DNA from: a virus
Virus record (IMG/VR): IMGVR_UViG_3300043122_000207
Location: 1-64,000 of that record
Length of the DNA: 64,000 bases
Strand: one strand, 5' to 3'
Of the stretch, positions 7,618-22,961 are shown one piece after another. Made by a program: the position numbers and the translations under genes. Position 1 is the first letter of the stretch; every line of letters begins with the position of its first letter. The notes under the pieces were generated by a model. The model saw only the letters and a program-made list of their open reading frames with translations. It did not search any database and was not told where the DNA came from.

Positions 7618-7844
7618 TGTAGATTTTACTTGTACATTTAAACTAGTTATATCTAAATCAGTGTTCACTTCCTTCTCATAAACTGTACCTTATTATTATT
7701 ATTTACTAAAGTTATAGCTTTACTTATCGTTGATATGGGATTACTCTCACTACCATCACCATTTGTATCATCACCATTTACTGCATCCACATAAATTATA
7801 TTGTCATAAGTTAATTCTTCTTTATTTATCTTTATAGTTGGCAT
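7618..7844 (-). pseudogene. Internally deleted remnant of a paralog of 43679..45511
   Basis: AGAGGTG RBS + MPTIKINKEELTYDNIIYVDAVNGDDTNGDGSESNP (matches N-terminus of the 610-aa ORF) joined out of frame to GTVYEKEVNTDLDITSLNVQVKST* (matches its C-terminus); in-frame stop at 7670-7668. Confidence 0.85.
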
Positions 7845-7862
7845 TTTTTAAATCACCTCTTC

Positions 7863-9254
7863 CTATGTTAATTGAATTCCACCTGAAGTGCCATATGTCT
7901 CTTCTGGTATAATATAAATATCTTCAGGTATATTTGAAATCACACTATCATTTACTAGATCACCATTTATAGGTATTAGTTTATCTTCCTTTGTGACACC
8001 TATCATTATATCACTTATATTTTTTATAACAGATTTGAAAGTGTAACCTGTATGGATATATTCACCTTCATATGTGTTGCCGATTGGATTACTACCACCC
8101 CATAAAAATAGTTTATCAGAATTATCTATAGCTAAAGATATCCCACTCCAAGTTGATGTGAATGCTTTTTTCCAATTAGAATTCCTGGGTGTGTAATCCA
8201 ATGTTTCACCACCACCATATCCACTAAACCACAAATTGATATACCCTTCTTTGGTTACATAATAACCATAACTAGAAGAAGCAAAATCATAATTGGTTAT
8301 ATTGTTGGTCAAAGGTATGGTTTCTAAAACTGTAGCTTTTCCATCTTCTCCCCACCCCATAATTGAACCATCTTCTTTTTGTGCTATTGCAGAAGAATGA
8401 CTTGTTTTGATGTCCACATAGTTATTACCAACTGGTAAATCACTCACGATACCATGTTCGTCATCCCCCCAACTTACAAGAGAACCATCTTCTTTTAGCC
8501 CAACGAAAAAACCGTCACCTGATTCTATTTTCACAAAATCGTTATCAGAGGGGGTATCACTTATTTGATCATTATCATTGTACAATGACCAACATTCTAC
8601 AGTACCATTTTCTCTTAAAGCCGACGCATTCATATTTTTAGCAGATACGTGGATAAAATCATTACCTTCTGGTACGAAATAAAACTCCGGGAGTGTATCA
8701 ACATCTTCTGGGGGGATTCCATTATCATCTATGAATTGCTGTTTTGTCATACTCATTGGTCCTACACCATCACCCCAACCCTCAATAGAACCGTCACTTT
8801 TAATTCTTATTCCATATGAATTTCCTATATCAAATTTTCTTAATTCTAGGTTTGTGTATTCTAAAAGCAAGTTAGCTCTTGCAAAATAATTTAATTTATT
8901 ATCACCTATACCGTCAGTTTTTACATACAGTTTATCTAAATTGTCGATTGGTATTGTCATTTGTCTTCCAGGTTTTAATATCATAACCTGTTTTTTTGCA
9001 TCACCAATAAATAGATCGTGATCGTTATCTGGGTCAGCCTGTAAGAGTATTTCTCTTGTCATCTTATATGTCGGTGATAATGGTCTGGCAGTAGTGTCAA
9101 CATCTACACTGTCACAGTAGGTGAAATTACTTTCATAATTGGTTTCTTCTACAGTTAATACATTCCATTCTCTTTTTTCGTTATCCCATCTAGCTGGCAA
9201 AGCACGACCTCTTAAATCAGTTGGTAGTTCTTCACCGTTATATTGTAAAGTCAT
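7863..9254 (-). CDS. RCC1-like repeat protein with N-terminal domain paralogous to 9269..9655
   Basis: Degenerate RCC1 repeats (ALRENGTVECW, GLKEDGSLVSWGDD, QKEDGSIMGWG); N-terminal 125 aa align with the upstream ORF. Confidence 0.7.
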   Translation of the reverse strand: MTLQYNGEELPTDLRGRALPARWDNEKREWNVLTVEETNYESNFTYCDSVDVDTTARPLSPTYKMTREILLQADPDNDHDLFIGDAKKQVMILKPGRQMTIPIDNLDKLYVKTDGIGDNKLNYFARANLLLEYTNLELRKFDIGNSYGIRIKSDGSIEGWGDGVGPMSMTKQQFIDDNGIPPEDVDTLPEFYFVPEGNDFIHVSAKNMNASALRENGTVECWSLYNDNDQISDTPSDNDFVKIESGDGFFVGLKEDGSLVSWGDDEHGIVSDLPVGNNYVDIKTSHSSAIAQKEDGSIMGWGEDGKATVLETIPLTNNITNYDFASSSYGYYVTKEGYINLWFSGYGGGETLDYTPRNSNWKKAFTSTWSGISLAIDNSDKLFLWGGSNPIGNTYEGEYIHTGYTFKSVIKNISDIMIGVTKEDKLIPINGDLVNDSVISNIPEDIYIIPEETYGTSGGIQLT

Positions 9255-15242: not shown

Positions 15243-16406
15243 ATGAAAGAAATTATAAAGATGATAAATATAGCAGATATTCATTCTGTACCAAATGATA
15301 CAGATGCATATACATTTTTTAATGATGATCTTTATTTTGTTTTGGAGTTTTTAGATAATAATGATTTTGATTTATTAACTATATCTGGTGATTTATTCGA
15401 AACAGTTTATAAAGCAGATTCACCAGAAGTTAGAATAACTTTAAGGTTTATGCATTTGCTTCTCAATATAGCTAGACAAAAAAATGCAAAGGTTAGAATA
15501 ATAAAAGGAACACACAGACACGATTATGACCAGCTATCACTTTTAGAACATTATGTATCTGAAACACATTATGATTTTAAAATATATGACAGTCCAACTG
15601 ATGAAGAAATCTTTGAGGATTTCATTGTTAAGTTCATACCAGAAATGTATGTTGATGATTATGTTGATTTTAAAGATAAATACTTATCAAGTTATTGTGA
15701 TGTAATGGTCTTTCATGGTATGGTAGAGGGTGTAATGAAAATAGCAGAAAGAAGAAACGATATTATATTAGACAAATCTGTCCCCATTATGAAAGTGCCG
15801 GATATAGAAAATTGCACTGAAATATTTGCAGTTGGCGGTCACATTCATAATAGGATTTTTGCGACAGATAATATATGGTATACGAACTCATTGCATGCAA
15901 AATCCTTTTCTGACACTGATGATAAGGGTTTTGATTATATTACAATAGATAATGTATCTAAAACTTTTGAAACTGAGTATATAATAAATGAGGAGTCACC
16001 TTCATACAAGGTTATAGATTTTACTGAGGATTTTCTAACACAGGGTAAAAAATCTTTAAGAGCTAAATTACTGGAGATGAAAAGAAAATTAGATTATAAA
16101 TCACATGTGAGATTGGATGTGGATATATCCAAATTAAATTCCACCCAAAAAGAAAACTTAGATTTTTTAAAAGTTAAATTCGGGGATAATTTTGAATTCA
16201 AAACAACAAAAAGTGATTTAAATACATCTGATGAAGTTTTTAATAAGAAATTAGAAGAAGCTAATATGGTTTTAGATAAGGGTATTCATTTAGAAAAAAA
16301 GGTATTAAAAGTTCTTCAGCAGAAAAAAGAACAGTATAATTTAAAAGAAAGTGATTTAGATATTAAAAAAATACAGGATGTACTAGAAATTCTCAGAACA
16401 GAATAA
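15243..16406 (+). CDS. sbcD: SbcD/Mre11-like metallophosphoesterase nuclease
   Basis: Calcineurin-like motifs: IADIH, ISGDLF, GTHRHD, VFHG, GGHIH. Confidence 0.85.
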   Translation: MKEIIKMINIADIHSVPNDTDAYTFFNDDLYFVLEFLDNNDFDLLTISGDLFETVYKADSPEVRITLRFMHLLLNIARQKNAKVRIIKGTHRHDYDQLSLLEHYVSETHYDFKIYDSPTDEEIFEDFIVKFIPEMYVDDYVDFKDKYLSSYCDVMVFHGMVEGVMKIAERRNDIILDKSVPIMKVPDIENCTEIFAVGGHIHNRIFATDNIWYTNSLHAKSFSDTDDKGFDYITIDNVSKTFETEYIINEESPSYKVIDFTEDFLTQGKKSLRAKLLEMKRKLDYKSHVRLDVDISKLNSTQKENLDFLKVKFGDNFEFKTTKSDLNTSDEVFNKKLEEANMVLDKGIHLEKKVLKVLQQKKEQYNLKESDLDIKKIQDVLEILRTE

Positions 16407-16422
16407 ATGGATATCAAATGTT

Positions 16423-18063
16423 TTGGAGGTGTTAAACTTGGCTTTTTATGATAACCGGGAGATGATGAAGACTACTCTTTTAAGTGTTTTAAAAAAAGGA
16501 CAGAATACAAAATATGTTATGACACTTAAAGAGGTATTTTCAAATGTCAAAATTAAAGATATGGTGGATGAAACTTGTATTGAATTAACTAAAATGATTA
16601 AAAAAGCAATAGAAGGTATAGGAGATTCTATACTTCGTTCAGAGATGCTTTTTGAATATGCTAAATCATCCGATGAAGATTTGAATGAAGAAATACACTC
16701 TAGAATGGATGAGCCTTTAGGAGAGTCTGTTATGCACGATTTAATGGCACATTATGCAACCATTAAATTATACCCCATTTTAATAGATAAGAGTGAAGAG
16801 ATTATTGATGCAGTGACCAAGATTAATATTGGTGGTATTAAAGATTCTGCTGATGCTATGGAAAACTTAAGAGAACTTTTAGGTAATGTTCAAACTGAGA
16901 TTAATAAATCCCTATCAGTTGAAGATGGTAAAACTATAGAGTTTGAAGAAGATACAATTATTGGTTTTGATGAAACTATTAAAGAAATGCGTGATACTGA
17001 AACATTTAGGGTTTATACTGATACAGCTTTAGATGACCATGATGGTGGGTATGCGCCAACTAAATCTTATTGTAAGATAGGTATTCCAGGTGGTGGTAAA
17101 TCTTTAACACTTTTAAATACTGCTCTTTTAATAAGGCACGCTAATAAATTTACACCAATGGAGCTTGAAGGTTATAAACCTATAGTGATTTATATTACCT
17201 TAGAAAATACCACTGTTCAAACTTTTGAAAGAATGTTGGCTTTCTATGGTATGGATAGTGATGAAATAGATGCAATGTCACCTGCTGAACTTAAAGCAAA
17301 ATGTATGGAGCTGGTTTCTCCTAAGGATGAATTTGACATAAGATTTTCTATTAAGCAGTTTAAAAGGTATACCATTGATGGTGTACATCTAACCAATATG
17401 GTCAAAGATTATGAAAACAGAGGTTACAAAGTTATGGCTTTAGTTGTCGATTACCTTGACCTTTTAGAGTTCCACGAAGATGCAGAGGATAGATATAATT
17501 CAAAAATGCCTATTGTAAAAAAGGCAGAGGATTTAAAAAATACTGCAATCGATGGGTTCACACCTGTTATAACAGCAGCACAGACAAATAGAAATGGTGA
17601 GGTTGCTATTAAAGAGGCTATAGAAAGAGGTAAGAATGTTATTGATCCTATTAAAGCATTACATGGTGGTTGTATTGCTGGTGGCTATCAGCTTAAGGGT
17701 GAATTTGATTTTGTGTCATTTATTTATAAAGGTGAATTCAATGGTAAAAATTATGTTTCTATTATGAGTGATAAAGAAAGAGACCATGTTGAAAAGAATG
17801 AAGATAGAAAATATCAGTCTGGTAAAAAGTTATCTGTTGTTCCACTTAATGGATTTAGATATACTAAAGAAACACTTCATTCTGCATCGGAGTTATTCCC
17901 TGAGGATAAAACCACAGTTAATATATTATCTGAGGGTAATAGGAAGTTTAAAGATATGGTTGAAGAAGGTAAAGGAAAAATAGAAACATCCAGTAATAAA
18001 AAGAAAAAAGAAAATGATGATGAAAAATCTAAGGGTATGAAAAGATCAATAGAGCAAAGTTAA
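16423..18063 (+). CDS. dnaB: DnaB-like (SF4) replicative helicase
   Basis: Walker A GIPGGGKS, YITLEN, Walker B VVDYLDLL, VITAAQTNR, C-terminal K.R arginine-finger region. Confidence 0.8.
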   Translation: MEVLNLAFYDNREMMKTTLLSVLKKGQNTKYVMTLKEVFSNVKIKDMVDETCIELTKMIKKAIEGIGDSILRSEMLFEYAKSSDEDLNEEIHSRMDEPLGESVMHDLMAHYATIKLYPILIDKSEEIIDAVTKINIGGIKDSADAMENLRELLGNVQTEINKSLSVEDGKTIEFEEDTIIGFDETIKEMRDTETFRVYTDTALDDHDGGYAPTKSYCKIGIPGGGKSLTLLNTALLIRHANKFTPMELEGYKPIVIYITLENTTVQTFERMLAFYGMDSDEIDAMSPAELKAKCMELVSPKDEFDIRFSIKQFKRYTIDGVHLTNMVKDYENRGYKVMALVVDYLDLLEFHEDAEDRYNSKMPIVKKAEDLKNTAIDGFTPVITAAQTNRNGEVAIKEAIERGKNVIDPIKALHGGCIAGGYQLKGEFDFVSFIYKGEFNGKNYVSIMSDKERDHVEKNEDRKYQSGKKLSVVPLNGFRYTKETLHSASELFPEDKTTVNILSEGNRKFKDMVEEGKGKIETSSNKKKKENDDEKSKGMKRSIEQS

Positions 18064-18107
18064 TAATGATACCATAGCTATCTTTCGCTATAGTTATGGT
18101 ATTTTGA

Positions 18108-18118
18108 TTATATATTAT
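18108..18118 (+). promoter_or_regulatory. TTATATATTAT motif, putative early phage promoter
   Basis: Same 11-mer recurs upstream of + strand genes at 29874, 35623, 51904, 53695, 57042; follows a hairpin at ~18070-18103. Confidence 0.6.
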
Positions 18119-18184
18119 ATGGTTGAAAGAGGAGATTTACATTAATGCATTAATTAAAAATACTTTAAAAGGAGATGTTAGAAA

Positions 18185-19513
18185 ATGGGAACTAATTATG
18201 TTGAGAGAGGTTATGACAGTTATGAAAGAGAAAACAAGTTAAGAGATTATTCGATTGCAGTTGGTAATGTACAACACGTTGAAGATTTAAGAGACAGGTT
18301 TGATTTACAGAAAGGGTCAGCTCATTCTAATGTAATGCACATGTTAGATGCATTGGAGACTGGAGAGGAATTTAACACACAAGCTAATATGAATATGGTC
18401 TTTGATGGTGCTTTAGCGGACTTTCTGGAATTTGTTAATCAGACTAATAAAGACCAGTACAAGTATTTAGAGGATGAAATTGATATGCTTAAAAGAATTT
18501 CATCTGGGCTGGCAAAACTTAAGATGGATGGTATTCTAAACGAGTTGGAAAAAGAAGGTATTCTAGAAAGAGATGAAGTTGATGCAATGGCTTCACATCA
18601 TATTCTAGATGATGCTGCTGAAGATTTAACTACAGCAACAAGTAAGAACATACTTCTTGCTAGAACAAATTCTGATTTAAAAGCTGCTATCCACAGTATT
18701 AGAAATACCTTTGATGACAATGCTTATAGATTTAATTTCGAAGGTAACCCTGTTATTGAGAAGTTACAGGACTTGGGAGTTGTAGAAAGTGTGCGTTCCC
18801 GAGGTATTATAAGAGAAGATGAAGGTTATAACGACGGACGCTCTACTGACTTTAGAAGAAGTACAGAAAGCAACTTCAATAGAAGAAGACCACAAAGACA
18901 GGGTGATAGAGTAGATTTCAATAGAGACTATTCTAGAAGAAATGATGATGTTGGTTATGCTGGAAGTAGAAGAACACCGCAGAGACAATATCAACCAAGA
19001 CAAAACTATCAGGACAATAGAAGATATGATAGTAGAAATGTGAGGTCTGATTATGGTGGTCGTTCAGGTGGAATACAATTAGACTTAAGTGGTGATAGAG
19101 GAAGACAACAAGATACCAGAAGAAATCAACCTGTAAGAAATTCTGCAGGAGGTAGAACTTCTAGAGCACCAAGAAAGAGCAGATATAATCCAAGCTATAA
19201 TGAACCAAGAAATAACTATGGAAGAAGAGATGATGGAAGATATAGTAGAAGAGATGCCCAGTATGATAGGGGTTATGACAGAGACAGAGGAGGATATGAT
19301 AGAAACAGAAGATCCTTCTCACTAAATGATTTTGGTGGTGGTTCAAGACAACCAAGACAATCAAGGGAAACTAGATTCTATCCCGATAATGATAGAAGTC
19401 GAAACAGATCACCAAGACCTTCTACTGGAACTTTCTCAATCTTAGGTTTTGATCAAGATGAAAGAGGAAACCGTAGTCTGCATATAAATGTCGATGATGA
19501 TTTTGTTTCTTAA
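18185..19513 (+). CDS. Protein with helical N-terminus and long R/G/D/Y/Q-rich intrinsically disordered C-terminus
   Basis: Residues ~215-430 dominated by R, D, G, Y, S, Q, N (e.g. RDAQYDRGYDRDRGGYDRNRR); AAGGAG RBS. Confidence 0.75.
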   Translation: MGTNYVERGYDSYERENKLRDYSIAVGNVQHVEDLRDRFDLQKGSAHSNVMHMLDALETGEEFNTQANMNMVFDGALADFLEFVNQTNKDQYKYLEDEIDMLKRISSGLAKLKMDGILNELEKEGILERDEVDAMASHHILDDAAEDLTTATSKNILLARTNSDLKAAIHSIRNTFDDNAYRFNFEGNPVIEKLQDLGVVESVRSRGIIREDEGYNDGRSTDFRRSTESNFNRRRPQRQGDRVDFNRDYSRRNDDVGYAGSRRTPQRQYQPRQNYQDNRRYDSRNVRSDYGGRSGGIQLDLSGDRGRQQDTRRNQPVRNSAGGRTSRAPRKSRYNPSYNEPRNNYGRRDDGRYSRRDAQYDRGYDRDRGGYDRNRRSFSLNDFGGGSRQPRQSRETRFYPDNDRSRNRSPRPSTGTFSILGFDQDERGNRSLHINVDDDFVS

Positions 19514-19581
19514 GTTATCATCTTAACCATAAATAAAGAACTGATAATTAAAAATAAAAAATTATTAAAGGAGATGTTAAA

Positions 19582-20514
19582 ATGAGAGATTTTGAAAACT
19601 TTCTAAAAGAAATGTATGAGTTCTATGAAAATTTGGATTGGAGTTATTCAGGAAGAAAACCAGAAAATAATGAAATCCGTAATAAGATTTCAATGACAGC
19701 TAAAAAGTATGGGGTGCCTATCTTTGGTGAGGGTACCAATAGAACAGTATTTGAAAATAATGGTTATGTTTATAAGCTTGCACATAAAAGAGGTGCAACT
19801 TATGATAACATTGGTGAGAAATCAAATACTGAATATATCAAAAGAAAGCATCCAGAGCTTATACCACATATTGCTGAAGCGACCAAATACATTGGTAACG
19901 AATACATGCTTGAAGAAGAGATGATTACCCCTATCTTTGAATTTGAAGGTATTGATAAATTCGAGGGTAGTGATGGTGAGAGAGCTCTTCAATTCTTAAT
20001 GGAAAGAGCAGACGATTATGATTATCTAATCGAGCTTCTTTCAAGAGCATTTATTCTAATGGATGCTTCACCAAAATCCATCTTCAACTATGGTCTAAAG
20101 ACTACAAGAAGTAGAGACGGTAGAAGACAAACTACTTTGGCAAACTTAGACTATGCATATTTTGTACCAAAAGATGGTGCTCTAATTTGTCCTACATGTA
20201 ATAATGGTGAATTAAAATATGATAAGATTGATTTACATTATAGAAATAATCAGGAAAGAGAAAAGATTATTAAGACTGTAAAATCAATCAATGAAGAACA
20301 ATATGTCTGCACCAATGAAGGATGTCAGCATCACAAAGGTGGAAGAGGTATTGCAGTTGAAGATGTTATTGAGATGTATGAGGATGGACAAATCCAAACA
20401 CAAAGATACCAGTCAGGTCCTGGCTCTAGAAGAGGAGGATATTCTTCCAGAAGTTATGAGAGAAGTTATGCTGGTAGCAGAAGTGGTGGATATAATGATG
20501 GGTTTAACAGATAA
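19582..20514 (+). CDS. Protein kinase-like protein with Zn ribbon and RGG/SR-rich tail
   Basis: GEGTNRTV (Gly loop), VYKLA (Lys), DNIGE (alphaC Glu), MDASPKSIFNYG (catalytic-loop-like), LDYAY (DFG-like); CPTC...CTNEGC; tail SRRGGYSSRSYERSYAGSRSGGY. Confidence 0.6.
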   Translation: MRDFENFLKEMYEFYENLDWSYSGRKPENNEIRNKISMTAKKYGVPIFGEGTNRTVFENNGYVYKLAHKRGATYDNIGEKSNTEYIKRKHPELIPHIAEATKYIGNEYMLEEEMITPIFEFEGIDKFEGSDGERALQFLMERADDYDYLIELLSRAFILMDASPKSIFNYGLKTTRSRDGRRQTTLANLDYAYFVPKDGALICPTCNNGELKYDKIDLHYRNNQEREKIIKTVKSINEEQYVCTNEGCQHHKGGRGIAVEDVIEMYEDGQIQTQRYQSGPGSRRGGYSSRSYERSYAGSRSGGYNDGFNR

Positions 20515-20524
20515 TTAAATTAAT

Positions 20525-20550
20525 GTGGGGGTGTAGTGCCCCCACTTTTT
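20525..20550 (+). terminator. Rho-independent terminator
   Basis: gtggggg-tgtagtg-cccccac stem-loop followed by T run, just after 19582..20514. Confidence 0.75.
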
Positions 20551-22117: not shown

Positions 22118-22480
22118 ATGGGTTTAACTATAAATGGATTAAAGGCAACCAAGAACATAATTGAAAAAACGATTGAAGAATACACAGTATACGAATACGG
22201 GTACTGTGTAATAATGATGGATGATTTAAGTGGTAATCAACTAGATGAGTTTATGGTTCACATATGTACAATTGAAATATTTAAAAGGGATGAGTTTGAA
22301 AAGAAACTTAAAAAAAGACTCAAGAGTTTCAATTACAGTCATTGTCATATAACTGGTCGTCTAACAGAAGATTTAAAAGAACATTATGACATTGTGGTTG
22401 GATTATTCGATAGAAAGGGTTTATTAGTGGATTCCACTTATAAAAAAAGAAAAGGTGAGTGTGTTGACAGGTTGTGTTAA
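22118..22480 (+). CDS. Hypothetical protein
   Basis: 120 aa, AGGAGG RBS. Confidence 0.6.
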   Translation: MGLTINGLKATKNIIEKTIEEYTVYEYGYCVIMMDDLSGNQLDEFMVHICTIEIFKRDEFEKKLKKRLKSFNYSHCHITGRLTEDLKEHYDIVVGLFDRKGLLVDSTYKKRKGECVDRLC

Positions 22481-22961
22481 TATCATATTCCTAGATATAG
22501 ACGGGGTTATGAGACCCGATAGTTTTATAGAGTTATCTCATATAAGTTTAGGTGGTGGTCAATATCCACCAGAAAAATTTAAAATAGAAAAAAGATTTGC
22601 ACCTTGGTCTGTTGATGTTTTGAATATATTATTAAATAGAAACCCAAATTTATATCTTGTGATATCATCCGAATGGAGAAGAAATATGTCTAGAGTTTAT
22701 GATGCTTTCGATTATAGTGGTTTACCTACAGAAAAAATTATAGGTAAGACACACCATATAAATGAATTGAAAACAAGGGGTGAGGAAATAAATAGATTCC
22801 TAGACGATTATGATTATCTCATATCAGACTACCTTGTAATAGATGATGATGATATTGAGGGTATTGATAAAAAAATTATAGTAAATAAAAAGACAGGTTT
22901 ATCTTTTGATACATTATCTAAAATAGATAATGATTTTAATTTAAGCTGGCTTTGGGAATAG
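22455..22961 (+). CDS. HAD-superfamily phosphatase (Swiss-army-knife RNA repair-like HAD domain)
   Basis: IIFLDIDGV, LVISSEWR, RGEEI, YLVIDDD motifs. Confidence 0.8.
   Translation: MSVLTGCVNIIFLDIDGVMRPDSFIELSHISLGGGQYPPEKFKIEKRFAPWSVDVLNILLNRNPNLYLVISSEWRRNMSRVYDAFDYSGLPTEKIIGKTHHINELKTRGEEINRFLDDYDYLISDYLVIDDDDIEGIDKKIIVNKKTGLSFDTLSKIDNDFNLSWLWE

Follow-up and report, generated by a model that had tools for sequence, protein, structure and literature searches.

We describe a pair of adjacent genes within the first 64 kb (64,000 nucleotides, hereafter the window) of the 194.6-kb (194,604 bp) virus record IMGVR_UViG_3300043122_000207, which is rated complete and has a G+C content of about 30%. 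Gene 1 (18185-19513) encodes a 442-residue protein with a folded head and a long disordered arm, and gene 2 (19582-20514) encodes a kinase-like protein of 310 residues with a short low-complexity tail; all features of the window given here lie on the + strand. We found that a functionally coupled module fits the results best, and that the two genes probably work together, because the pair is kept across very different relatives. We propose, with a probability of about 0.45 and thus somewhat short of even odds, that they form an early-expressed scaffold-plus-enzyme module of an AR9-related clade of jumbo phages, possibly one that makes a condensate.

The structure model of gene 2, built, like the conservation counts given below, on a family alignment of 52 sequences, reaches a predicted local distance difference test (pLDDT) score of 90.4 and a predicted template modelling (pTM) score of 0.85, with disorder (pLDDT <50) confined to residues 284-310. 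In a Foldseek search against the PDB every top match is a kinase with a probability of 1.0, among them Rio2 (E 1.5e-4), PRPK/Bud32, DCLK1 and CLK1, and VIA-align gives Z scores of 8-9 over 170-190 residues for ULK1 (9.0), HIPK2, PRPK/Bud32 (8.4-8.7) and APH(2'')-Id. The matches in a library of viral structures are uncharacterised phage proteins and annotated phage kinases. The original prediction, which a model had made from the DNA letters alone, had named such a structure search as a check of its kinase-like reading, and the fold is indeed found. Because the fold is bilobal and carries the full catalytic set, we assign gene 2 to the protein-kinase-like superfamily, of which it is a new, unnamed branch.

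At the level of sequence this branch is small and isolated. Gene 2 has no significant match in Pfam, PHROGs or NCBIfam, and an exhaustive profile search of 1.84 billion representatives returned just 53 proteins. Neither Pkinase (PF00069) nor RIO1 (PF01163) matches gene 2 at E <=1, so that its likeness to RIO is structural only; Pkinase has no match in the whole genome either, and the 25 families listed as matched most often by the 52 members (E <=0.1) do not include it. A sequence-profile search of the PDB gave sub-threshold matches only, to ribosomal L19e in the tail and to the N-lobe of APH(2'')-Id (E about 0.09). Membership of the Pkinase, RIO or T7 gp0.7 families was rejected for want of profile matches and because the family has a DYG motif in place of DPV, membership of APH is improbable, and a role of gene 2 as a primase is ruled out by the kinase-like fold that Foldseek and VIA-align recover.

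The core of gene 2 (residues 1-272, 19582..20397) is a minimal protein-kinase-like domain, as judged from the model, the Foldseek and VIA-align comparisons and the pattern of conservation. The order of motifs read earlier from the letters, including the cysteines and the tail, is all present and falls on the expected elements of the model: GEGTNRTV (G49-x-G51-T-N-R54), K65 on a strand at 62-67, E79 on a helix at 72-89, D161...N169, D190-YAY and C203xxC206...C243xxxxC248. The catalytic loop D161...N169 is a D-x7-N, with an Asp-Asn spacing of eight as against the five of D-x4-N. D161 and D190 are found in all 52 members, G51 and R54 in 51 each, E79 and N169 in 48 each and K65 in 46; in the metal loop D190-Y-G/A, the Asp and the G/A are present in 52/52 members and the Tyr in 35/52. 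From sequence and model together, we conclude that the enzyme is probably catalytically active.

Past the DYG motif the model holds a zinc ribbon and two helices only, without an activation segment or a substrate-binding lobe. The C4 zinc ribbon (C203, C206, C243 and C248; 20188..20325) is inserted at this point, its two CxxC-type knuckles lying on strands 200-213 and 240-243; all four of its cysteines are conserved, in 47 to 52 of the 52 members, and members of the family match Pfam zinc-ribbon models. The tail that follows (residues 273-310, 20398..20514), recognised by its composition and low pLDDT, is rich in S/G/R/Y, has a net charge of about +5 and ends in the tip GFNR, a form of the G-[FY]-[NY]-[RK] tip common to the members of the Arg-rich clade. 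As a separate observation, the profile of the kinase family also matched a protein of 1765 residues (P0013) in 15 separate stretches, all of them at profile positions 186-267, which is the zinc-ribbon part; this protein appears to be a long array of zinc-ribbon modules without a kinase.

The protein of gene 1 has the two-part build that the original prediction had described, a helical N-terminal domain followed by a long low-complexity region. The head (residues 1-225, 18185..18859) is an acidic, all-helical domain by model and composition, with a net charge of -18 and a pI of 4.6 (residues 1-215); the model is poor, with a pLDDT of 43 overall and of 70-79 only for residues 100-150, and its helices span residues 12-196. 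The arm (residues 226-442, 18860..19513) is disordered, with a pLDDT <50 for residues 198-426. Over its approximately 217 residues it consists of 22% R, 12% D, 11% S, 10% G and 6% Y, with 10% aromatic residues, a net charge of +19 and a pI of 11 (residues 216-442). The fraction of charged residues is 0.36, and we found no tandem repeat in the DNA beneath the arm.

The RGG part of the earlier label RGG/R-D-Y fits this arm loosely, as gene 1 has one RGG (plus six RG) and gene 2 has one. With a single RGG per protein, we describe the arm as an Arg/Asp/Ser/Gly/Tyr polyampholyte and not as an RGG-repeat region. A phase separator of the RGG/RG-motif type, such as FUS or LAF-1, was rejected for gene 1 on the same absence of repeated motifs. 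The arm does have the general make-up of low-complexity scaffolds, that is, a long disordered region with the sticker residues Arg and Tyr.

No significant family match was found for gene 1 in Pfam, PHROGs or NCBIfam, and a Foldseek search with its model gave no match at E <=0.001. Its homologues are few (P0005-P0008, P0059 and L007), and a final search added no further members. The head is conserved in all of them, while the arm diverges freely through in-frame insertions and deletions and keeps three islands, which we located in alignment A2. The first, GIQLDL (residues 296-301, 19070..19087), has G296, I297 and L299 invariant. The second, RRSFSLNDF (residues 375-383, 19307..19333), is a candidate docking or phospho-acceptor motif with R375, R376, S377, F378 and L380 invariant, and is present in two copies in P0008. 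The third is the C-terminal block (residues 410-442, 19412..19510), with many invariant columns at 410-437, which ends in SLHINVDDDFVS; related tips to this closing SLHINVDDDF are found in L007 and L004.

In another protein of the window, P0061 (30798-31994), about 60 residues form a disordered linker rich in Arg and Asp, with the islands RRDRSFL, RPSFIG and RRDSIF. These resemble the RRSFSL of gene 1, and the motif common to them, RRxS followed by a hydrophobic residue, is too loose to score. The N-terminus of P0061 carries a GIGxxT motif like that of a helix-hairpin-helix. We found neither a Pfam family for P0061 nor a match among cultured phages; possibly this protein is another substrate or client of the system formed by the pair.

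We compared 14 genomic contexts of gene 2 family members, and in 12 of the 14 a protein that combines a folded head with a long arm of low complexity is encoded 5′ of the kinase gene, so that the co-occurrence in related jumbo phages that had been put forward as a check is observed. The arm gene directly adjoins the kinase gene in the window, in the contigs L002, L004, L007, L009, L016, L017 and L018 and in the Fusobacterium phage JD-Fnp4 (gp82/gp83; ON464764, L012). In three other contigs one gene separates the two: L011 (5019-5969, 316 aa), L014 (6201-6932, 243 aa) and L015 (6448-7008, 186 aa). None of these intervening genes belongs to a Pfam family, and the one in L011 has a P/S/N-rich low-complexity stretch of its own. 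The kinase of JD-Fnp4, gp83 (7818-8801), is annotated as a hypothetical protein and scores 119.8 bits against the hidden Markov model (HMM) of the family; it has lost the four zinc-ribbon cysteines, keeps the catalytic motifs and carries a G/S/Y/F-rich N-terminal tail. A tblastn search of 50,697 phage records with gene 1, gene 2 and P0061 gave no match, gp83 being recognised by the family HMM only, and a related-locus search of viral contigs returned no relatives. In AR9 the pair is absent after the helicase gene.

Next we examined how the composition of arms and tails varies between lineages. That of the arm is entirely different from one lineage to another. The arm is R/D/S-rich in the window, L002, L004, L007 and L016, T/G/V-rich in L009, Q/P/Y-rich in L011, N/G/M-rich in L014, N/G/T-rich in L015, G/S/Y/F/K-rich in JD-Fnp4, N/P/V/G-rich in L017 and G/Y/N-rich in L018. 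A clearly low-complexity tail is found in about 19 of the 52 representatives of the kinase family, C-terminal in the Arg clade and N-terminal elsewhere, and P0009 has tails resembling RS domains. For eight lineages, the summed cosine similarity between tail and arm is highest for the true pairing out of all 40,320 permutations, and the true pairing is still the best once the composition of the kinase core is subtracted. With the kinase core compared instead of the tail, 3,196 of the 40,320 permutations reach the observed value, and we conclude that a general bias of the proteome does not explain the match between tail and arm.

Furthermore, charge follows the same partners. The net charge of the arm is correlated with that of the kinase core at r = -0.94 (9 pairs), a more basic arm going with a more acidic core, and with that of its own head at r = -0.85, again with the more basic arm facing the more acidic head. 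Two of the lineages, L017 and L018, were picked for their unusual tails at a time when their partners were not yet known. This co-variation of tail and arm is new evidence that the pair acts through its low-complexity parts, as the idea of a condensate predicts.

The transcription signals around the pair had been noted in the original prediction as a promoter motif and a strong terminator that enclose a two-gene unit, and both signals and both open reading frames stand up to analysis. The promoter (18108..18125) consists of TTATATATTAT followed by 6 nt and a G, and matches the core of the experimentally defined AR9 early promoter consensus, AAATATATATTAT-(6N)-G, at which transcription by the injected virion RNA polymerase needs no newly made protein (PMC5312081). 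In the 194.6-kb genome, the + strand has 19 copies of TTATATATTAT and the - strand has one, each with the 6 nt and the G; all copies lie 5′ of genes and nearly always 5′ of the ribosome-binding site. The same sequence is present 5′ of the partner gene in L002, L004 and L007, and a close variant, ACTATATATTAT, in JD-Fnp4. The motif at 18108 is not a chance AT-rich word. At the other end, the unit is closed by an intrinsic terminator (20525..20545) with a 9-bp stem that includes 6 G-C pairs, followed by TTTTT. A hairpin scan of the region found 8 terminator-like sites where 2.4 were expected and none in the 68-nt gap between the two genes, which are therefore one transcription unit. Given the AR9-type promoter and the relatives of the neighbouring helicase, the pair most likely forms an early unit in a jumbo phage related to AR9, its timing in the source phage being read from these sequence signals. 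Within the window, TTATATATTAT-(6N)-G occurs at 18108, 29874, 35623, 51904, 53695 and 57042, with 13 further sites in the genome; from this set of AR9-type promoters the early regulon of the source phage could be delimited.

The pair follows a nuclease and a helicase gene, as had also been read from the sequence, and the two precede it in every contig of sufficient length. The first gene of this conserved block (15243..16406) encodes an SbcD/Mre11-like nuclease with 30% identity to AR9 gp002, annotated as SbcD-like (E 4e-28), and a weak match to TIGR00619 (sbcd); a counterpart of equal size and position is found in L002, L007, L009, L011, L014, L015 and JD-Fnp4. The second (16423..18063) encodes a DnaB-like replicative helicase (PF20307 divDNAB, 3.7e-12; PF03796, 5.9e-08; phrog_19, 1.2e-18), with its nearest relatives in the Fusobacterium JD-Fnp phages, in AR9/PBS1 and in Staphylococcus jumbo phages. 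A terminator-like hairpin (18068..18103) with a 14-bp stem and a subsequent T run ends the helicase unit. A few genes 3′ of the pair, the window (22455-22961) and L004 (4364-5200) encode a HAD_SAK_2 protein (PF18143, 2.6e-17), the HAD domain of the "Swiss Army Knife" RNA-repair proteins.

Within this replication block, then, the module that we propose would work as follows. In phages with two RNA polymerases, the pair would be expressed early from its place right behind the SbcD-like nuclease and DnaB-like helicase genes. Gene 1 would supply the scaffold, with an acidic helical head, an arm of about 217 residues with a few conserved short hydrophobic islands and a conserved C-terminal tip, and gene 2 would supply a minimal enzyme, competent in catalysis and about as large as RIO or Bud32, in which the zinc ribbon would replace the activation segment. 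The tail and the complementary charge of the core would bring the enzyme to the arm of its partner by like-with-like low-complexity contacts. There the enzyme may phosphorylate the arm or the proteins recruited to it, or may remodel them using ATP, while the arm protein would nucleate a multivalent, replication-associated assembly early in infection. The reading given in the original prediction, a phosphorylation-controlled condensate, is partly supported, in that the kinase fold and the conserved pairing are found, and a condensate is a plausible, candidate form of this assembly. A bolder version, which we regard as doubtful, is a viral factory, coded by composition and regulated by the kinase, in those AR9-related jumbo phages that have no protein-shelled nucleus: the arm protein would condense early around the replication machinery, the kinase, addressed by its arm-copying tail, would tune or dissolve the phase by phosphorylation, and each lineage would have drifted to a private code (R/D, Q/P/Y, N/G/M or G/S/Y/F).

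Several observations weigh against such a coupled module. The homology of partner heads is detectable within the Arg-rich clade only, hhalign found no link between the partner heads of different lineages, and outside that clade a partner is defined by position and architecture. In the short contigs L005 and L006 the fragment 5′ of the kinase is not of low complexity, and more than half of the family members are without a clear low-complexity tail. The permutation and charge tests compare lineages whose phylogenetic independence is incomplete. The charges of the arm are well mixed, with a kappa of 0.18 that is the same as that of shuffled sequences, and this alone does not favour self-coacervation. 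Finally, RIO and Bud32, in structure the closest relatives, act mainly as ATPase switches and not as protein kinases.

Systems with comparable parts are known. In CLK/SRPK with SR proteins, and in DYRK3, a low-complexity or RS-type region of the kinase matches that of its substrate and the two partition together; with these, gene 2 has only the kinase fold in common, and its setting is a bacterial virus. The rotavirus viroplasm pair NSP5/NSP2 likewise combines a disordered phosphorylated scaffold with an enzyme partner, an analogy only, as the proteins are unrelated and the virus is an RNA virus of eukaryotes. In phages, documented condensate drivers are ChmC of the Chimalliviridae (10.1101/2023.09.22.559000) and SPO1 Gp27 (PMC13401047). 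Like gene 1, both combine a folded domain with a disordered low-complexity region, which in their case drives condensates in infection; neither is paired with a kinase, and ChmC has a Whirly fold, binds RNA and ends in a tail of about 50-70 residues, whereas the arm of gene 1 has about 200 residues and a composition that varies by lineage. The original prediction had held that no equivalent is described in phages. This does not stand for condensates as such, given these two proteins. As to the coupling to a kinase, none of the papers within reach of our literature search describes a phage kinase with a disordered partner, and none describes the gene 2 kinase family.

Among the alternatives, one that we consider unlikely is that the two genes do separate jobs, gene 2 being an early host-takeover or anti-defence kinase like T7 gp0.7 whose zinc ribbon and basic tail would direct it to targets bound to nucleic acid, and gene 1 an unrelated replication protein. 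The early promoter of the pair would suit such a kinase, the zinc ribbon and the Arg-rich tail could bind nucleic acid, and the T7 kinase is itself early, promiscuous and steered by a C-terminal DNA-binding domain (PMC13645617), so that both would be early phage kinases with a substrate-steering C-terminal module. However, the tail follows the composition of the arm even where both are uncharged (N/G/Y or Q/P/Y), and the gene order is kept across deep divergence. Furthermore, the relatives of the T7 kinase, mostly in Autographiviridae, have a DPV motif and a shut-off (SO) domain (PMC13645617), whereas gene 2 has neither, and its family instead has DYG, the zinc ribbon, the low-complexity tail and a dedicated disordered partner.

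Similarly improbable is that gene 1 is an SSB-like hub of the replisome, with a head that binds DNA or a replisome component, an arm that is a mere flexible linker and a tip (...DDDF) that docks the helicase or polymerase; there would then be no condensate, and the kinase would be a docked client. Gene 1 directly follows the DnaB-like gene, short conserved tips end the arm in all lineages, and the composition of the arm drifts freely, as that of a linker would. Bacterial SSB has the same succession of head, long low-complexity linker and short acidic/hydrophobic tip in a replication context. Moreover, no Pfam-level match to SSB (PF00436), Toprim_2, Toprim_4 or the DnaG zinc ribbon was found in the whole 194,604-bp genome. 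Lacking a Pfam-detectable SSB or DnaG-type primase, the genome leaves room for unrecognised replication roles; the SSB and primase of the source phage are either very divergent or otherwise supplied. Against a hub of this kind, SSB has an OB fold, whereas the head of gene 1 is helical and strongly acidic (pI 4.6-4.7) in its low-confidence model, and a pure linker leaves the copied composition of the kinase tail unexplained.

We give less weight still to the possibility that gene 2 is an ATPase switch or assembly factor like RIO or Bud32, whose ATP turnover would remodel or release the assembly of gene 1. Its best Foldseek matches are Rio2 and PRPK/Bud32, and it resembles the RIO kinases (Rio2; PDB 6fdm, 1zao) and Bud32/PRPK (4ww7, 6wqx) in having a minimal kinase-like fold of about 230-280 residues, extra N-terminal helices and the full catalytic set, without an activation segment or, past the DYG motif, substrate-binding helices. 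However, ULK1, HIPK2, CLK1 and APH(2'') score equally well (Z 8-9), so that the structural ranking does not discriminate, and the RIO1 profile fails to match. Gene 2 also differs in its GxGTNR P-loop, D-x7-N, DYG and C4 zinc ribbon, in having no Pkinase profile match, and in its context, which is neither that of the ribosome nor that of KEOPS; its loops GEGTNR, D-x7-N and DYA/DYG are unlike the signature loops of RIO. It is very improbable that gene 2 acts on small molecules, as the aminoglycoside and choline kinases do: the N-lobe of APH(2'')-Id is its only weak sequence-profile match, one Atlas cluster has 20% APH members and VIA-align gives a Z of 8.4 to 4dbx, but the profile matches are below significance and confined to the nucleotide-binding lobe, and such enzymes have no use for a zinc ribbon, a disordered tail or a coupled disordered protein.

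Taken together, a coupled scaffold and enzyme would bear on a question that has opened up only recently, as phase separation during phage infection has been demonstrated just lately, with ChmC and SPO1 Gp27. The module is conserved across a large set of jumbo phages that are mostly uncultured; as the cultured JD-Fnp4 has it too, it is open to laboratory tests. With tail and arm matched lineage by lineage, the pairs would offer a natural experiment on the low-complexity "codes" that sort proteins. Even if no condensate is formed, the pair brings to light a kinase family that has no name yet, contains its own zinc ribbon and is joined in the early replication block by a conserved partner.

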